From Candidatus Latescibacterota bacterium (GTDB lineage Bacteria > Latescibacterota > UBA2968 > GCA-2709665): a stretch of 64,000 bases of DNA. Each line of letters begins with the position of its first letter. The first letter of the stretch is position 1. The stretch covers positions 5,088,001 through 5,152,000 of the forward strand of contig OZ252100.1 of assembly GCA_965248435.1 (NCBI GenBank). The letters run 5' to 3'. The notes under the pieces are model-generated. The model saw nothing but the letters and a program-made list of their open reading frames with translations, had not been told where the DNA came from and searched no databases. Position numbers and translations under genes: made by a program. This document shows positions 30,853-37,283 of this stretch, piece by piece.

Positions 30853-31901
30853 GGATTCAATGACTAAGTGCAACACTTGGACTTGAAGACTTCAGCTGGT
30901 GTTTTGAAGTTAAGACATTTTCTTGGTCGGTTGTTGATCCGGTTCTGAATTTTCTTTAACTCGTGTTTGCTGACCTTTGAGAAGTCTGTCTTCTTGGGGA
31001 GGTATCTGCGGACCAGACCGATAGCGTTTTCCACAGCGCCTCGCTCCCAGCTGTGGAACGGTTTGCAGAAATAGGATTTGGTGCCAAGCACCTCGTTGAC
31101 CCGTTGATGTTGGCCGTTTTCGGATCCGTTGTCATATGTGATGCTCTTCCTCATGTGGGGAGGATGTCGCCCAAGGCGTCGATTAATCGCTTCGGCGACC
31201 TCCGAGGGTCCGTTCTTTGCCAGCTTAGCCAGGTGTAGGTATCTCGACGATCGCTCAAGACAAGCGCCAACGGCCTGTTTGCTCTCACGAGAGATGATGG
31301 TGTCGGATTCCCAGTGGCCAGGTTGTTTCCGTTTTTCGATGTAACGGGGACGTCGATCGATCGAAATACGGCCTGGAATGTGGCTTTCCCGGTGTTTTCG
31401 GGTATGCCACCGCGGCTTTCGTTTTTTGTGAGCTCGGGATAAGCAAGCAACCAGATCCCGCTGCTTGTGCACCTTTGGATCGTAGATATACTGGTAGATG
31501 GCTTCGTGGCTGATACCCGCGCTCGGACGCTCCTCGGGAAGCCTCCCAGCGATCAACTCGGGAGACCATCCTTGCTTGAGTTTGGTCTCGACATATCGCC
31601 GGATAACCGGATTCTTCAGCCGTTTCCGCTTGCCGGCCTCCCGCTTACGTTTCTCAGCCCTTCTGTGAGCCTGGAGGCCCGAGTAACTCTCAGCTATCGG
31701 GGACGGATTACGTTTCAACTCTCTTGAAATCGTGCTGGCGCTCCGGTCAAGGGCCTTGGCAATATCTCTAAGGCTTGCACCAGTGGCTCGACAAAGCGCA
31801 ATCTGCTCGCGTTCGTCTATCGTAAGATGCTTGTAATTGTTTCCCATACACTTAGGATAGGACAGTTGCTACCCTAAGTGTTGCACTTCCTTATTGAACT
31901 C
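30853..31901 (-). mobile_element. IS30-family insertion sequence
   Basis: 26-bp imperfect terminal inverted repeats: GGATTCAATGACTAAGTGCAACACTT (30853-30878) and the reverse complement of 31876-31901, GAGTTCAATAAGGAAGTGCAACACTT. Confidence 0.9.
30864..31847 (-). CDS. IS30 transposase
   Basis: STISRELKRN HTH, WSPELI, GHWESDT, ITYDNGSE and WERGAVEN. Confidence 0.96.
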   Translation of the reverse strand: MGNNYKHLTIDEREQIALCRATGASLRDIAKALDRSASTISRELKRNPSPIAESYSGLQAHRRAEKRKREAGKRKRLKNPVIRRYVETKLKQGWSPELIAGRLPEERPSAGISHEAIYQYIYDPKVHKQRDLVACLSRAHKKRKPRWHTRKHRESHIPGRISIDRRPRYIEKRKQPGHWESDTIISRESKQAVGACLERSSRYLHLAKLAKNGPSEVAEAINRRLGRHPPHMRKSITYDNGSENGQHQRVNEVLGTKSYFCKPFHSWERGAVENAIGLVRRYLPKKTDFSKVSKHELKKIQNRINNRPRKCLNFKTPAEVFKSKCCT

Positions 31902-31915
31902 GGGAACTGCCTTTG

Positions 31916-31938
31916 CGAGATACGAGATACGAGATACG
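31916..31938. repeat. (CGAGATA)x3 heptamer repeat
   Basis: cgagatacgagatacgagatacg. Confidence 0.75.
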
Positions 31939-32010
31939 TTCCTTGTCCAGTGAGACTCCGGCTGCCCCCGAGCGGTTTCGTTAAAATCTGGTCTTGCGGC
32001 CGAGCGTGGA

Positions 32011-33309
32011 CTACAACACGAGACGGTCGAACGACTTGACGAAGACCAGAAAGTCCAGGAAGTCGACGCGACCGCTGTTGTCGAAGTCGAAGGCCGGAGC
32101 GCTGCCGTTGAATGCAAGGGTAAAGGCGATGAAATCCAGAAAGTCGACCTTCCCGCTGTTGTCGAAATCGGTCCGCGGATCGGCGAATATCTGGACGCCG
32201 GTTCCGGATATCGGGAGTTCGATGACCTCTCGCTCGGGATCGTTAGTGAAGATGCTGAGCGTACCCTGAAACTCACCTTCTGCGCCGGGTGAAACCGCGA
32301 CCTTGAGGTCATAAGATGCACCGGCCTGTATTTCAAAGGAAGATTCCGACGGGGTAACGTTCTCCAGGTCCGATTCCACACCGGTGACGACCAGCTTGCC
32401 CTCACCCGAATTCGTGATCCTGACGGTCCTTCGCATCGTGCGGCCCACCTCCGAATCCCCGAAGTCGACCCGGTCGACCGCGAGTTCGATCGCAGGGGGC
32501 AGGGCGACGACCGCTATGGCCGGGATCGTGATCTCGAGGCTGGGCTGGTCGGTGTCGTTACTCGTCAGCGTCAGGCGGCCGGAGAGACTTCCATCCCGAA
32601 CCGGCATCAACGTGATCTGAATCGTACCGGTTTCGCCCGGTTCGACCGTCAGTTCGGTAACGTCGACGGAGATCTCGTCCAGGTCCGAGCTGATTCCACT
32701 GATGTCCAGCGTTCCGGTCCCGGTGTTCACGATATCGAGAGAGAGGGTACGTGAATCTCCGGGCTGGATCTCCGGCCCGAAGTCGAGCGTGTCGGCCGCC
32801 TGGATCATGGGGGTCGAGATCAGCTGCTGAATGACTTCGGCGGCCTTTTGCCGGTCGAACCTTCCCGAGCCGCTCTTGTGCCGGACGACACCCTCCCGGT
32901 CCACGACCAGCATCGCGTCGACCGAGCCGGCGGCGTTGACGCCGAGGGCGGTCACCCTTGAGGCCTGGAGGAGCAGTGGAAAGGAGACACCGGTCGTGTT
33001 TTCAAAGGCGTTTACCCCGGCCAGGCTGCCGTCCCACATGTCCAGCCCCAGGACCTGAACACCCTGATCTTCGAAGACCTGCCAGATTTCTGTTTCAATG
33101 GACGGACCCGTCCCGAAGCAGACACTTCAGTTGAATCCGAAGAAGTAGAGGACGAGCACGCCGTTTCTGAAATCGGTCGGAGCGTAATTCCTCCCATCGT
33201 GGCCGAGCAGCGAAAAATCAGGCAGTGCATCGCCCACGTTCAAGGCCTTGGCCTCGAGCGGCAGGGCAAGAAGACCCAGGATCAACCAAACCTTCGGTAC
33301 TCGTTCCAT
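32011..33309 (-). CDS. Predicted selenoprotein: signal peptide, AhpC/TSA-like redoxin (UxxC), two Ig-like domains and dockerin/EF-hand; 432 aa, Sec61
   Basis: ORFs 33127-33330 and 32011-33039 are in frame across TGA 33127-33129: YFFGFN-U-SVC-FGTGPSIETEIWQ. This aligns with FGFR-C-PVC-YGTGP of the adjacent paralog. Confidence 0.88.
33100..33113 (-). promoter_or_regulatory. Candidate bacterial SECIS hairpin
   Basis: GGACG-GGUC-CGUCC starting 13 nt after the UGA; G-led apical loop; identical in the second Sec gene. Confidence 0.75.
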
Positions 33310-33373
33310 TCCTTGCGCTCCTATGATCACTCCCGGCTGTTCGATTGCGGATTTCGGATTGCAGATTGCGGAT

Positions 33374-34078
33374 TCAGTTCAAGGGCTGGCCGAACGAGGA
33401 AGCGAAGACCAGGAAATCGCCGAAATCGACGCGGCCGCTGGCGTCCAGGTCGTAGGCCGTTTCATCGGTGTCGTAGGCCTGAGCGAAAAGGACGAAATCC
33501 AGGAAGTCGACGCCGCCGCTCTGGTCAAAATCGGCCCGCGGATCGGCGAGGGCGGAGTCGCTGTCCAAAAGTCCGGAGATGACGTTGGCCGCCCTTCTGA
33601 CATCCTCAGGCTGGGAAGTGCTGATGTGACGGATCACTCCCCCCTGGTCGATGACCATCAACGCGTCGATCTGACCCACAATATTCACCTCGAACCTGTT
33701 CACAGCCGTTTGGGCGGTCCCATTCAACAGCAACGGAAATGTCGTGCCGGTGATCCTGCTGAAATTCAAAACTCCGGACTCACTCCCGTTCCACATCTCG
33801 ATGCCGAGCACCTGAAGGTCACGGTCTTTGAAGGCCTGCCATATTTCACGCTCGACGAACGGGCCCGTTCCATAACATACGGGACAGCGGAATCCGAAGA
33901 AATAGAGGACGAGGACCCTCCCGCTGAAGTCGTCAGATTCATACGTCCCTCCTCCGAGCGCGTCCAGGGCGAAACCGGGCGCCTGATCGCCGACGTTGAT
34001 CGCGGAGATCAGGGTGGGCAGTGAAAGGGATGCAGCGAGGACCCAAAGAATAAGATAAGCTGACGGCCGTCTTTTCAT
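33374..34078 (-). CDS. Secreted AhpC/TSA-like redoxin (CxxC) with dockerin/EF-hand; Cys paralog
   Basis: Signal peptide, VGDQAPGF, FGFRCPVC and two DFDxSGxVDF repeats. Confidence 0.88.
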   Translation of the reverse strand: MKRRPSAYLILWVLAASLSLPTLISAINVGDQAPGFALDALGGGTYESDDFSGRVLVLYFFGFRCPVCYGTGPFVEREIWQAFKDRDLQVLGIEMWNGSESGVLNFSRITGTTFPLLLNGTAQTAVNRFEVNIVGQIDALMVIDQGGVIRHISTSQPEDVRRAANVISGLLDSDSALADPRADFDQSGGVDFLDFVLFAQAYDTDETAYDLDASGRVDFGDFLVFASSFGQPLN

Positions 34079-34105
34079 CCAGGTCTGTGCCTCGGATCAA
34101 ACGTT

Positions 34106-35125
34106 TCAGCCCAGAGGCCTGTTGAAGGATGTGGCAAAGATGATGAGATCTCCGAAATCGACCCGGCCGCTGGCGTCCAGGTCGAACGCCGGGTCCGTGG
34201 TGTCGAAGGCCTGCGAGAAGCGGACGAAGTCCAGGAAATCGACCTCGCCGCTCCCGTCAAAGTCGGTTCGGGGATCGGCGAAGCGGACGACCGTCTCTCC
34301 GGAGAAGGGGATCATCAGCTCAGGCGTGGCAGGGTCGTTGCTCAAGACGCTCAACGTCCCGGAGAAGGGCCCCTCCTCGGCCGGCGTTACCGTGACGTTG
34401 ATCTCGTGACTCTCTCCGGGGGGGATACTTATCCCTGAGATGTTTGTCGTGATCTCAGACAGGTCGGACCGGACCCCCGTGATATCGAGAGGGGCCGTGC
34501 CAGAGTTGATGACTTCCAAAGTGAAGGTCCTGGATACGCCCGACTCGAGTTGCGAGCCGAGGGTCAGGGCGTTAACGCGCGTCTCAATCGCGGGCTTGTC
34601 GAGAAGCTCCGTAATGGTTTTCGCCGCGACGTCTATCGATTCCCCCGCGAAACGGATGATGCCCTGCTGGTCCGCGACGATGATGTCATCGATGCGACGC
34701 AAAACGCCACTGTAATCGGTCGCGTAGAGGTAGTTTTCGAGGGGCATACCATTCGCATCGAAATTCGTCCTGCTGGCGGCGCGCAGTAGAAGCGGAAAGG
34801 TCACGCCCGTGATCGCCCTGAAGTTGTCCACGCCCGTCGCGCTCCCGTTCCAGATGTCCAGGCCGAGAACCTGCACGCCCTGGTCCTCGAACGCCTTCCA
34901 TAGTTCTTTTTCGATGGACGGACCCGTCCCGTAGCAGATCGTTCAGTCGAAGCCGAAGTGATACAGGACGATGACCTTACCCTCGAAGTCCGCCGACCTG
35001 TAGGTGTCGCCAATGCCGTCATGCAGGGCAAAGGGGGTAAGCGGTCTTCCCACCTCGGCCGTCACGCTGGCAAAGCCGAGGCACAGGAGGACCGCTGTCA
35101 GGGCCGGTTTGGCAAGCTTGAACAA
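34106..35125 (-). CDS. Predicted selenoprotein: signal peptide, redoxin (UxxC), one Ig-like domain and dockerin/EF-hand; 339 aa
   Basis: ORFs 34943-35125 and 34106-34876 are in frame across TGA 34943-34945: YHFGFD-U-TIC-YGTGPSIEKELWKAF. Confidence 0.88.
34916..34929 (-). promoter_or_regulatory. Candidate bacterial SECIS hairpin
   Basis: GGACG-GGUC-CGUCC 13 nt after the UGA. Confidence 0.75.
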
Positions 35126-35164
35126 TTCTGTTCTGGCTCCTTCCCTCTTGAGGCTCGGCGTACA

Positions 35165-36712
35165 TCAGAAATGAGTGGTCAGCCGCATCTCCATCCCGCG
35201 GAACGGGAGCACCTGATAGCACGTCCCGGAGGTGCACGCCGTGCCTCCGCGACGTTTCCCCGCGAACAGGATGGCGTCGTGTCGTCCGAAAAACTGCGCG
35301 TTCAGATTTATCCCCCACCACGTCACCGGGTCGGTCTCGCGCTCGAAGGTCTCAGGCCTGTCCACTTCCACAGGGTCGGAGGACCGGTCTGTTTGTAAGG
35401 CCGCGCCGAAGCCTGCAGGGTGCTGCCAGGAGAGGGAGGCGTAGGTTTCCGTAAAAAGGGCAGACCCTTCGGGAGGATGAGCTGCCCGCTGCAGCTGGAA
35501 ATCGAATTCAAATCGGTGATCTGTCGGCGTGGAGGTGCCCAGGGTAAACCCCCCGACCCGTCGCCTTGAAATGCCTCGCAGCTCATCCTTGCCCCAGTCG
35601 AAAAAGGCGGTCGCGGTGAACTCGGGATAGAATCTATCGAAGTCCATCTCCAGGTATTGCTCTTCGAAGTCCCTGCTGATGTCGGCGATGTCGTTGCGCC
35701 CCCGGCTCAAGTTGGCCGTAAACGTGGCGAGCCCGGGCTGGTTGTAGGTCGCCTCTATCTGGTAGCCCCTTTCGTTCTGCGGGAAGAGGACGTGTGTGGC
35801 CCGGTTGAGCAGGTATGCGCTATGTTCTCTGACCAGGGACGGCGGATCGTTGACCTGCGAAGAGAGAAGATCGTCGGTCCTGAGTGAAAATCCGTCATAG
35901 TCCTTGTACTCGAAGCCGAATCCCAATCGGGTTCCGCCGAGGTCTCCGGACAGGTAGAAAGCCCGACCCTCTTCTTCCACTCCGGCCCGGTTGGCGATCT
36001 CTCCGTACAGACTCGCGTAAATGTCCTGAATCCCGGAGCGCTCGATCAGGGGGGTCAGTTCGATGCTCCCGATGCCCGACCAGACCCAGTTCGAATCCAG
36101 ACGCCCCGGATCGAGTGCGACCCACGTCCCGCCTACCCTCAGAGGATCCAGGAGCCGGACAGAGAGTTCGCCGCCCGCGACCCAGTCCTGTCTCCGATCC
36201 AGCCCCGATATGTCCGGTGGGACATCCGCCCTCACGGGTCGCCCCACGAGGGCCTTCGCCTCCGCCCGATTGCCGATCCAGGAGACTATTCCCCCTTCCA
36301 GGTCCTGGGAGGGGGTGTAGCGCCTGCGAAAATTGTTGTCTTCGAGGATGACGCCCGGAAGCTCGAAGGCCCTGAGGGTGAGTCCGCGGCCAAGGATGGC
36401 GTAGTAATTACCTGCCACGACCTCGGCGGAACCCAACGTCCAGCGCGCATATTTTTGGGACAGGTTGAGGATGCGTCGATCCTCGCCCAGGGCCTCGAAG
36501 ATTTCGGCGCGGAGTCCGACCTGGATCCTGCTGCTCGGGGCATACTCGAGATTGAACTGCTCGTAGACGGTCGAGATGTCCTCGGCATCCGAACCCGGCA
36601 CCTTGCCCCGCTGCACCTCCGTGACGCTGGACAGGACCACCTGGGCGCCCGCCTTCGCGAAAGAGAGCAGCAGGCCCAGGACCATCAGGCTACATTTCAG
36701 CACGATCAACAT
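35165..36712 (-). CDS. DUF6029-like outer-membrane beta-barrel protein
   Basis: Signal peptide, GNYYAILGRGLTLR, EYKDY and C-terminal GG.ACTSGTCYQV.PFRG...F; adjacent to tlpA. Confidence 0.7.
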   Translation of the reverse strand: MLIVLKCSLMVLGLLLSFAKAGAQVVLSSVTEVQRGKVPGSDAEDISTVYEQFNLEYAPSSRIQVGLRAEIFEALGEDRRILNLSQKYARWTLGSAEVVAGNYYAILGRGLTLRAFELPGVILEDNNFRRRYTPSQDLEGGIVSWIGNRAEAKALVGRPVRADVPPDISGLDRRQDWVAGGELSVRLLDPLRVGGTWVALDPGRLDSNWVWSGIGSIELTPLIERSGIQDIYASLYGEIANRAGVEEEGRAFYLSGDLGGTRLGFGFEYKDYDGFSLRTDDLLSSQVNDPPSLVREHSAYLLNRATHVLFPQNERGYQIEATYNQPGLATFTANLSRGRNDIADISRDFEEQYLEMDFDRFYPEFTATAFFDWGKDELRGISRRRVGGFTLGTSTPTDHRFEFDFQLQRAAHPPEGSALFTETYASLSWQHPAGFGAALQTDRSSDPVEVDRPETFERETDPVTWWGINLNAQFFGRHDAILFAGKRRGGTACTSGTCYQVLPFRGMEMRLTTHF

Positions 36713-37283
36713 CAGGTGGCTCTTCGGTCTCCTGCTCAGCGGGGAGCGCGGCCTCGATTGCGTTGAGCAGGTCCTTGTGTTGACTGGGCCTGAATCCGGA
36801 TAAACGAAGCAGGATTTCCCCGTCGGGGGCGACCAAAAGCGTGGCAGGCAGGGAAGTCACCTGGAACCGGCGCATGACCCCGCCATCGCTGTCGATCACG
36901 ACCGGAATGGTGATCTTTCTCGCCCTGATGAACGGTTTTACTTTCGTCCGACTGCGCGGTCCGTCTTCGTTGACCCCGAGTACGGTGAGACCGCGATCCT
37001 TGAAGCGTTCGTGGAGCCCCACCAGTTTCGGCATCGCCTTGAGACAGGGTTTGCACCAGGTTGCCCAAAAATCGATCAGGACGGGTCCGTTCTTCCGCAG
37101 TGCGGACAGCCTGATCTGTTTCCCCTCCGGAGTTGGGAGGCTGAAGTCGGGCGCCTGGGTCCCGGAGGTGGGTTGCGGCAGCAGCAGCCCGCATAGCACC
37201 AACAGGACCACGGGGGTGCCCCATTTTTGTGTGGACTTCAATTCTGAGGTACACATAAGGGCCTCCGGTCTCCGATGTCCCAC
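36690..37283 (-). CDS. TlpA-family disulfide reductase (exported)
   Basis: APDFSL, DFWATWCKPC and SLPAT. Confidence 0.9.
   Translation of the reverse strand: MGHRRPEALMCTSELKSTQKWGTPVVLLVLCGLLLPQPTSGTQAPDFSLPTPEGKQIRLSALRKNGPVLIDFWATWCKPCLKAMPKLVGLHERFKDRGLTVLGVNEDGPRSRTKVKPFIRARKITIPVVIDSDGGVMRRFQVTSLPATLLVAPDGEILLRLSGFRPSQHKDLLNAIEAALPAEQETEEPPDVDRAEM

Follow-up and report, generated by a model that had tools for sequence, protein, structure and literature searches.

Introduction

The selenocysteine insertion sequence (SECIS) in the fdhF gene of Escherichia coli is the best-studied of the hairpins that bind SelB. Here we consider a 14-nucleotide (nt) hairpin which follows an in-frame UGA codon in two genes of Candidatus Latescibacterota bacterium (GenBank assembly GCA_965248435.1), together with its counterpart behind a cysteine (Cys) codon in the gene that lies between them. 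The three genes are found in a stretch of 64,000 nt of contig OZ252100.1 (positions 5,088,001 to 5,152,000), hereafter the window, in which positions are numbered from its first letter. A first-pass annotation, made from the letters of the sequence, had proposed that the hairpin is a lineage-specific, minimal SECIS and that the Cys gene holds a vestigial copy of it, recording a switch from selenocysteine (Sec, U) to Cys and possibly serving as a selenium-independent backup.

Several described systems offer points of comparison, and these are cited here from excerpts of the papers concerned. The E. coli upper stem-loop measures 17 nt and begins 11 nt from the UGA, with U17, G23 and U24 as its key bases (PMC8659212). 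The consensus bacterial SECIS (bSECIS) model has a loop of 3-9 nt, an upper stem of 4-16 base pairs (bp), a G in the first two loop positions (G[G/U]N), a distance of 16-37 nt from UGA to loop and a minimum free energy (MFE) of -7.5 kcal/mol or lower (PMC13188914), whilst the usual bacterial stem is given as 6-8 bp (PMC4605307). On the protein side, the Prx-like thiol:disulfide oxidoreductases (PF00578, UxxC) are a listed bacterial selenoprotein family (PMC13188914; PMC1794560, Table 1), the listing being graded as “predicted with high confidence”. Remnant SECIS-like structures after the Cys codon, in Cys homologs that stem from selenoproteins, were reported in 2006 for Mannheimia succiniciproducens FdhA and a Desulfitobacterium hafniense HesB-like protein (PMC1794560, text and legend to Fig. 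4).

Two UGA genes and a Cys gene in tandem

The 14-nt hairpin very likely forms the apex of a genuine bacterial SECIS in two secreted Prx-like/TlpA-like selenoproteins of the UxxC type, and the middle gene is probably a Sec-to-Cys derivative which carries a remnant of it. The three AhpC/TSA-type paralogs are arranged head to tail, all on the minus strand, and, from the sequence and its translations, bear the motifs UxxC, CxxC and UxxC (Table 1). Each begins with a hydrophobic, signal-peptide-like N-terminus and ends in repeats of the form DxDxSGxVDFxDF, which are EF-hand/dockerin-like. PF00578 scores 47.6, 53.2 and 38.3 bits in genes 1, 2 and 3 (cut-off 26), and in gene 1 covers residues 32-151, spanning U68; PF07610/PF15780 and NF012200 also match this gene, the probable start codon of which is the ATG at 33307-33309. 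The best NCBIfam model for the window redoxins is ResA, at 39.3 bits, under its cut-off of 170.

Table 1. Positions of the three paralogs, their hairpins and adjoining genes in the window, and of likely selenoprotein genes elsewhere in the genome (C1 coordinates).
Feature	Position	Strand	Description
Predicted selenoprotein gene 1	32011..33330	-	Frame with TGA read as U open for 439 residues; signal-peptide-like N-terminus, AhpC/TSA (TlpA/ResA-like) domain with UxxC, two immunoglobulin (Ig)-like domains (DUF1573/choice-of-anchor-D), C-terminal EF-hand/dockerin-like repeats
Predicted Sec-UGA of gene 1 (U68)	33127..33129	-	FFGFN-U-SVC; aligns with the leading Cys of the CxxC motif of gene 2
Probable apical SECIS hairpin of gene 1	33100..33113	-	GGACG-GGUC-CGUCC; 13 nt after the UGA, loop 18 nt after; encodes (G)TGPS
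Gene 2, Cys paralog (CPVC)	33374..34078	-	AhpC/TSA domain and C-terminal EF-hand/dockerin-like repeats, without Ig-like domain
TGT of gene 2, first Cys	33884..33886	-	FGFR-C-PVC
SECIS-like hairpin of the Cys copy	33857..33870	-	GAACG-GGCC-CGUUC; 13 nt after the TGT
Predicted selenoprotein gene 3	34106..35125	-	Signal-peptide-like N-terminus, AhpC/TSA domain with UxxC, one Ig-like domain, EF-hand/dockerin-like repeats
Predicted Sec-UGA of gene 3 (U61)	34943..34945	-	FGFD-U-TIC
Probable apical SECIS hairpin of gene 3	34916..34929	-	Same sequence and 13-nt offset as in gene 1
DUF6029 gene	35165..36712	-	Directly upstream of the three paralogs; PF19494, E 1e-17
Cys-type TlpA-like redoxin (WCKPC)	36690..37283	-	PF00578, 94 bits; heads a same-strand cluster
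Formate dehydrogenase (FDH)-like gene	C1:2028907	-	NCSRA-U-HAPT; GGUUGCC-GGUCU-GGCAGCC, 7-bp stem, GGU 18 nt after the UGA
Second Prx-like gene	C1:3177005	-	FYRGFW-U-PHC; GGUUC loop
selD	C1:1063595	-	SCGG-U-ASK; 7-bp stem 13 nt after the UGA, GGU loop

A search with the redoxin domain of the Cys copy as query found homologs in 39 of 41 genomes of relatives and in 100 of the 132 genomes of the class, nearly all with one internal TGA; a further 14 class-wide matches stand outside the matches listed. For the counts given here 38 loci and 80 further regions, a subset of the matches, were fetched, and the merging of identical 183-nt stretches left 127 distinct sequences from four families of the class. 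The codon for the first Cys of the CxxC motif was TGA in 120 of these, TGT in five and TGC in two.

Standard gene callers would end genes 1 and 3 at the in-frame UGAs, and it might be argued that these are real stops and the two genes pseudogenes or split genes, for which the hairpin is irrelevant. We regard this as extremely unlikely. With TGA read as Sec the frame remains open for 371 codons after the UGA in gene 1 and for 278 in gene 3, the Pfam domain spans the UGA, the same codon is TGA in nearly all of the homologs just described, and the genome holds the full Sec machinery. An alternative genetic code was also considered and rejected, as gene 3 itself ends at an ordinary TGA stop (34106-34108) and the Sec machinery together with the Cys alignment account for the in-frame UGAs.

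Selenocysteine machinery and other likely selenoprotein genes

The Sec machinery is encoded in one cluster (C1:1062487-1067069), in which selA scores 568.6 bits (cut-off 267.9), selB 370.8 bits (cut-off 242.25) and selD, with one in-frame TGA, 371.7 bits; the tRNA-Sec scores 74.3 bits (gathering threshold 47). ARAGORN found no tRNA in the window. Three more selenoprotein genes are likely to be present outside the window, namely an FDH-like gene, a second Prx-like gene and selD itself (Table 1), and GGU is present in all five of the SECIS loops seen in this genome.

The whole genome was scanned for a stop triplet followed at 18 nt by a GGTC loop on a stem of at least 4 bp, with the frame open on both sides. 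Six matches were found with TGA, of which two are the window genes and the remaining four appear to be noise, and there was none with TAA or TAG. A looser scan for a GGT loop returned 135 matches for TGA as against 29 for TAA and 48 for TAG, most of which are noise because out-of-frame TGA is common, and when these were judged by eye only selD, the FDH-like gene and one further Prx-like gene appeared to be real.

The hairpin and the peptide that it encodes

The hairpins, their 13-nt offsets and the changes in the Cys copy (a G-C pair to A-U, and a GGUC loop to GGCC) are all present in the sequence as first described. Read on the coding strand, GGACGGGUCCGUCC occurs at 33113-33100 and 34929-34916, and these are its only two occurrences in the 5.67-Mb genome. 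The two Sec genes share 70% identity across 180 nt around the UGA, and the longest exact match between them over their whole length is the 18-mer CGGGACGGGUCCGUCCAU, which has the hairpin inside it; this identity of the hairpins exceeds chance. Gene conversion was considered as the source of the 18-nt identity and rejected, as orthologs from other genera carry the same 14-mer.

Taken alone the Sec hairpin has a folding energy of -6.2 kcal/mol, and the UGA plus 37 nt reaches -11.9 kcal/mol in gene 1 and -8.0 kcal/mol in gene 3. The hairpin of gene 1 is present in the MFE structure of 60 nt. Beneath it the lower stem is short, consisting of UUCG/UGAA around a 2-nt bulge in gene 1 and of CG/CG only in gene 3; a lower stem of UCUGC/GUAGA occurs in six of the eight genes which carry the Sec 14-mer but is absent from the two window genes.

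As the bases of the hairpin also encode a peptide, it has to be asked whether the structure is a by-product of Gly-Thr-Gly-Pro-Ser and of codon bias, with no function at the level of RNA, read-through (if any) being achieved by other means. A number of results lean this way and weigh against a SECIS. When codons were redrawn with the peptide preserved, a stem of at least 5 bp was obtained in 11% of redraws for gene 1 (P = 0.11) and in 8.5% for gene 3 (P = 0.085), and the Pro at codon 8 is also found in a distant Cys redoxin (WCAPCQDEMP, L059). Folding z-scores were not significant: over 60 nt they were -1.29 for gene 1 and -0.27 for gene 3, with 19 and 67 of 200 dinucleotide shuffles at least as stable, and in folds of 100 nt the hairpin of the window Sec genes lies outside the MFE structure. 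Family-wide, the mean z of the 45-nt MFE against synonymous redraws came to only -0.71, the two control windows giving -0.30 and -0.25. In alignment A1, which comprises the 54 sequences of the Gly-Pro group, RNAalifold predicted no consensus pair, the outermost pair of the proposed hairpin is formed in only 17 of the 54 on fixed columns, and a count of four pairs altered on both sides was reached in 108 of 500 shuffles. A scan of 31500-36000 against Rfam, with E values up to 10, returned two chance-level matches only (E 2.8 and 9.1). The sub-clades differ in register, some having a GGUC tetraloop, others a CGGGU pentaloop or a GUC triloop. The folding energy of a whole region is too blunt a measure here, and a position-specific count of stems was used in its place; the significance of the hairpin rests on the comparison of homologs rather than on the two window genes, because the single-gene probabilities and the folding energies are unremarkable.

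For the comparison of codons, genes were grouped by peptide and not by motif. Of the 120 Sec genes, 55 encode Gly-Pro at codons 7-8. GGT is the Gly codon in 49 of these 55, against 19.7% of the 701 other Gly codons in the same genes, and CCG is the Pro codon in 48, against 37.8% of the remaining 233 Pro codons. The third base of codon 6 is G in 50 of the 55, and in 49 of 51 where Ala or Thr precedes Gly-Pro. When the flanks were grouped by single linkage at 70% identity, GGT was found in 18 of 20 clusters and CCG likewise in 18 of 20, with binomial P values on clusters of 2.5e-11 and 1.9e-6 respectively; as kin are not independent these P values are overstated. The invariant Gly at codon -3, taken as a control, follows ordinary usage (GGC 29, GGG 14, GGA 9, GGT 3), and its contrast with the Gly-Pro codons stands despite kinship.

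The position of the structure points the same way. Contiguous stems of at least 5 bp with a loop of 3-6 nt were counted in 3-nt bins along 170 nt, and 80.8% of the 120 Sec genes proved to have such a stem with the loop centre 18-20 nt past the UGA; the two bins that came next reached 47% and 33%, and most stayed below 20%. Under a null in which the peptide was kept and codons were redrawn from the genes' own usage, 10.2% would be expected, and the highest of 200 replicate sets came to 15.8%. The 120 Sec genes hold 39 different stem/loop sequences, 32 of which have at least 5 bp, and a G is present in the loop of all 39 hairpin types. By gene, the stem measures 4 bp in 19, 5 bp in 15, 6 bp in 68, 7 bp in 10, 8 bp in five and 9 bp in three. 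The variants include, with the peptides that they encode, GGACG-GGUC-CGUCC (GTGPS), AGACG-GGUC-CGUCU (QTGPS) and ACGGACG-GUC-CGUCCGU (TDGPSV), besides GAGAGGCG-GGUC-CGUCUCUC and CGCG-GGUC-CGCG, the latter with GAG/CUC flanks; RAAGPRL is another of the encoded peptides. In clades that have lost the Gly-Pro peptide a hairpin still stands at this site, as in the case of CUCUCG-CGUGC-CGAGAG (LSRAESF) and UCGCGG-AGG-CCGCGA (IAEAAN).

Covariation is the more modest part of this evidence. On the fixed columns of A1, pair 27-38 is GC in 40 sequences, CG in six and GU in two, pair 28-37 is GU in 26, AU in 12 and GC in 12, and pair 26-39 is GC in 13 and AU in four. Paired cells amount to 68.3%, as compared with 64.6 +/- 1.1% in shuffled alignments (0 of 500 shuffles reach 68.3%) and 34.0-52.8% when the pairing is slid along the alignment. 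The covariation across homologs that the first-pass annotation had proposed as a check is seen as an excess of paired cells over shuffles, but it is modest, is measured on fixed columns and is not accompanied by an RNAalifold consensus. The same annotation would have been undone had the GTGP peptide explained the conservation in full, with no synonymous constraint; the codon counts and the excess of stems over the redraw null clearly speak otherwise. A by-product of the peptide is largely refuted by the codon counts, the clusters and the redraw null, and we consider it very unlikely.

We are accordingly confident in the SECIS reading of the first pass, which is upheld by the Sec machinery, by TGA in 120 of 127 homologs, by the frequency of stems at the expected position and by the constraint on the GGT and CCG codons, and it is highly probable that the hairpin functions as a SECIS through SelB binding and read-through. 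With the UGA in the ribosomal A site, SelB carrying GTP and Sec-tRNA(Sec) would bind the hairpin through its C-terminal winged-helix domains. In the GGUC loop it would recognise G and U, which are positions 23 and 24 in a numbering that starts at the U of the UGA, and Sec would be delivered in place of termination. The element would be a short SECIS, with a 5-bp upper stem and a weak lower stem but with canonical loop and spacing. Its bases would also encode Thr-Gly-Pro-Ser just past the redox motif, and would therefore be under a double constraint, from the peptide and from the RNA. The known mechanism of Sec insertion is unchanged by these results.

The Cys copy

A careful tree was made from 38 rows picked as representatives of the 127, and a quick tree from all 127 rows. 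In the former the three window paralogs group together (support 93/88) within a clade (100/99) which otherwise holds Sec-only neighbours. Its six Cys rows need five changes, at least four of which are forced by well-supported branches, and the Cys rows form one group in 0 of 200 bootstrap trees; in the 127-row tree the seven Cys rows need six changes. A change from Sec to Cys in gene 2 is parsimonious because the trio is nested among Sec neighbours, the family is Sec in 120 of 127 sequences and the Cys forms are scattered. This is probably the direction that was taken, as first proposed, although the trees favour it weakly.

There is the possibility that the change ran the other way, the Cys gene being ancestral, its neighbours having turned to Sec, and its hairpin being a peptide-driven “proto-SECIS” which eased the switch. 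Three points can be set against the Sec-to-Cys direction on these grounds. Thiol oxidoreductase selenoproteins are mostly traced to Cys-to-Sec change, and for the Prx-like family Table 1 of PMC1794560 gives three Cys-to-Sec events and no Sec-to-Cys event (see also PMC13188914); the GTGP peptide yields a 5-bp hairpin at the site of the Cys copy in 17% of peptide-preserving codon redraws (P = 0.17); and the branching order within the window trio is not settled by the 38-row tree. However, TGA stands at the same codon in 120 of the 127 homologs from the four families of the class, and the trio is nested, with the support given above, among Sec-only neighbours. An ancestral Cys would require no fewer than two additional, independent gains at this codon, and each gain would have to give the 14-mer that is found in orthologs of other genera (L021-L024, L038, L137). 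We consider it unlikely, and prefer a Sec-to-Cys derivative of a lineage-specific duplication, in which the hairpin would have been inherited and would now be weakening, with the loop U lost and the folding energy reduced.

The hairpin of the Cys gene, which reads GAACGGGCCCGUUC on the coding strand (33870-33857), differs from that of the Sec copies at three of 14 bases. The first change, G to A, is synonymous in a Gly codon; the second, U to C in the loop, is synonymous too (GGT to GGC); and the third, C to U, replaces Ser with Phe. GGC is the commonest Gly codon and was gained where the Cys copy lost the loop U. The folding energy is -3.8 kcal/mol as compared with -6.2 kcal/mol in the Sec copies, and the hairpin is absent from the MFE structures of both 40 and 60 nt. 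As a side observation, the 14-mer GAACGGGCCCGTTC at 33857-33870 is, as DNA, a perfect palindrome, with an identical reading on either strand.

It had been suggested that the altered pair is a compensatory change, and one may ask whether the hairpin of the Cys gene is itself under selection, as a regulator or decoy of SelB, as a pause site for the ribosome, or as a structure poised for a return to Sec. Two of the three substitutions in the 14-mer do hit both partners of one pair and leave it paired, and a second, independent Cys copy, L051 of G043, which lies in tandem with a Sec gene, has GGACG-GUC-CGUCC intact. However, a single event is at issue, and the compensated pair needs no selection because the path from G-C through G-U to A-U never unpairs; moreover, a hairpin at this site has the probability of 0.17 given the peptide. 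The pair therefore does not serve as evidence of compensation. The loss of stability and the disappearance from the two MFE structures speak against maintenance, as does the replacement of the loop U, a base present in every SECIS loop seen in this genome. Among the seven Cys copies, a sample too small for a comparison of rates, three (L021, L106 and L059) have a contiguous stem of at most 3 bp at the site, and L054 (6 bp) and L058 (5 bp) attain 5 bp or more only by way of G-U pairs and loops of 6-7 nt. Selection on the structure is quite unlikely to be the explanation, and the hairpin of the Cys copy is very probably a neutral remnant rather than a maintained structure.

A wider form of the same idea would hold that tandem Sec/Cys pairs, as in G000, G005 and G043, keep a “poised” SECIS, either for toggling between Sec and Cys with the supply of selenium or as a decoy or regulator of SelB. 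This is speculative and we would give it little credence; if it were true, the changes between Sec and Cys in this redoxin family, at least four in number, would represent an adaptive, reversible switch and not one-way loss.

The family and the surroundings of the locus

Tandem arrays are the rule in this family, and in several genomes of family f1 two Sec copies lie approximately 1 kb apart (L025-L028, from G013, G011, G007 and G016). Tandems of a Sec with a Cys gene were seen in the window (G000), in G005 (L021) and in G043 (L051). Two sequences carry an extra stop two codons before the Cys or Sec codon, L106 of G048 (FG*D-C) and L080 of G062 (FG*D-U); the in-frame stops in these matches are one TAA in G048 and one TGA with one TAG in G062, and the two may be pseudogenes.

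A tblastn match to the DUF6029 gene was found in 23 of 38 homolog loci of approximately 3.4 kb, including all f1 loci and some from f4, and the DUF6029 gene and the redoxin family look like a conserved gene pair of unknown function. In the window the start of the DUF6029 gene is overlapped by approximately 20 nt by the Cys-type redoxin at 36690-37283. Directly downstream of gene 1, on the minus strand, is an IS30-like transposase (HTH_38 and rve; 30864-31847). The redoxin-domain query found no family member in G001 (97% complete), which is the one further genome from this genus. With a transposase adjoining it and no homolog in G001, the locus may be variable between genomes of the genus.

Comparison with known SECIS elements and selenoproteins

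The SECIS is best regarded as real but ordinary. The selenoproteins are of a kind already known, and the Cys paralog plausibly retains a remnant of the element. The practical consequence is that two genes which ordinary annotation would cut at a TGA are predicted to encode full-length, secreted selenoproteins. The locus also provides a clean example of overlapping constraint from peptide and RNA, in which GGT and CCG are used in nearly 90% of cases at Gly-Pro but in 20% and 38% elsewhere. Above the hairpin itself stands the wider result of a class-wide Prx-like/TlpA-like family with Sec in 120 of the 127 sequences fetched, 39 SECIS stem variants and at least four separate Sec/Cys changes. The family could add cases of Sec/Cys change in a thiol oxidoreductase, and its natural hairpin variants could be used to define what SelB requires. 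The novelty is modest, and lies in the near-universal use of Sec across a class, the domain architecture and the repeated Sec/Cys changes. A literature search, which drew on parts of papers and had selenoprotein databases outside its scope, found no paper on the multidomain secreted form or on its Sec/Cys turnover.

When compared with the bSECIS model (PMC13188914), the window hairpins agree on four counts, having a 4-nt loop on a 5-bp stem, a loop that starts with GG, a distance of 18 nt from the UGA, and -11.9 and -8.0 kcal/mol over the UGA plus 37 nt; they also lie within the coding region, directly after the Sec-UGA. The setting is that of a bSECIS, with an in-frame UGA aligned with the Cys of homologs, selA, selB, selC and selD in the genome, and a structure kept beyond the needs of the peptide. 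They differ in having a stem close to the minimum length permitted, no more than -6.2 kcal/mol for the hairpin by itself, and a lower stem which, in the two window genes, is weak and unconserved. With 5 bp the stem falls short of the 6-8 bp reported as usual (PMC4605307); this makes “minimal” a fair description of the element and is also one of two structural points that count against its being a SECIS.

The other point emerges from the comparison with fdhF. In E. coli K-12 the first in-frame stop of fdhF is a TGA at codon 140, and GGTC begins 18 nt after it. The window GGUC occupies positions 22-25 and so presents G23 and U24, counted from the U of the UGA, just as in K-12 fdhF. However, the bulged U17, which is essential according to reviews (PMC8659212), is absent from the window hairpins, in which position 17 is the first G of an unbroken 5-bp stem. 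The extended lower helix of fdhF, of approximately 40 nt, has no clear counterpart in the window, and the host protein is a redoxin and not a formate dehydrogenase. Since E. coli fdhF and the FDH-like gene of this same genome also have GGUC at 18 nt from the UGA, and given the agreement with the bSECIS model described above, the element cannot be called lineage-specific.

As to the protein, the Sec genes of the window resemble the described Prx-like family in having PF00578 and a UxxC motif in which U takes the place of the first Cys (U-SV-C and U-TI-C), to which C-PV-C corresponds in the Cys copy; the likeness to the family is drawn by description. The window proteins differ in being exported (by prediction) and multidomain, with DUF1573/choice-of-anchor-D and EF-hand/dockerin-like parts, and genes of this type stand in tandem arrays beside a DUF6029 gene and are almost wholly Sec across a class. 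The Cys paralog, in turn, is like the remnants described in M. succiniciproducens and D. hafniense (PMC1794560) in that it belongs to a Sec-using organism and has a hairpin with a loop G at the SECIS position, and is unlike them in belonging to the Prx-like family and in standing in tandem between two Sec copies.

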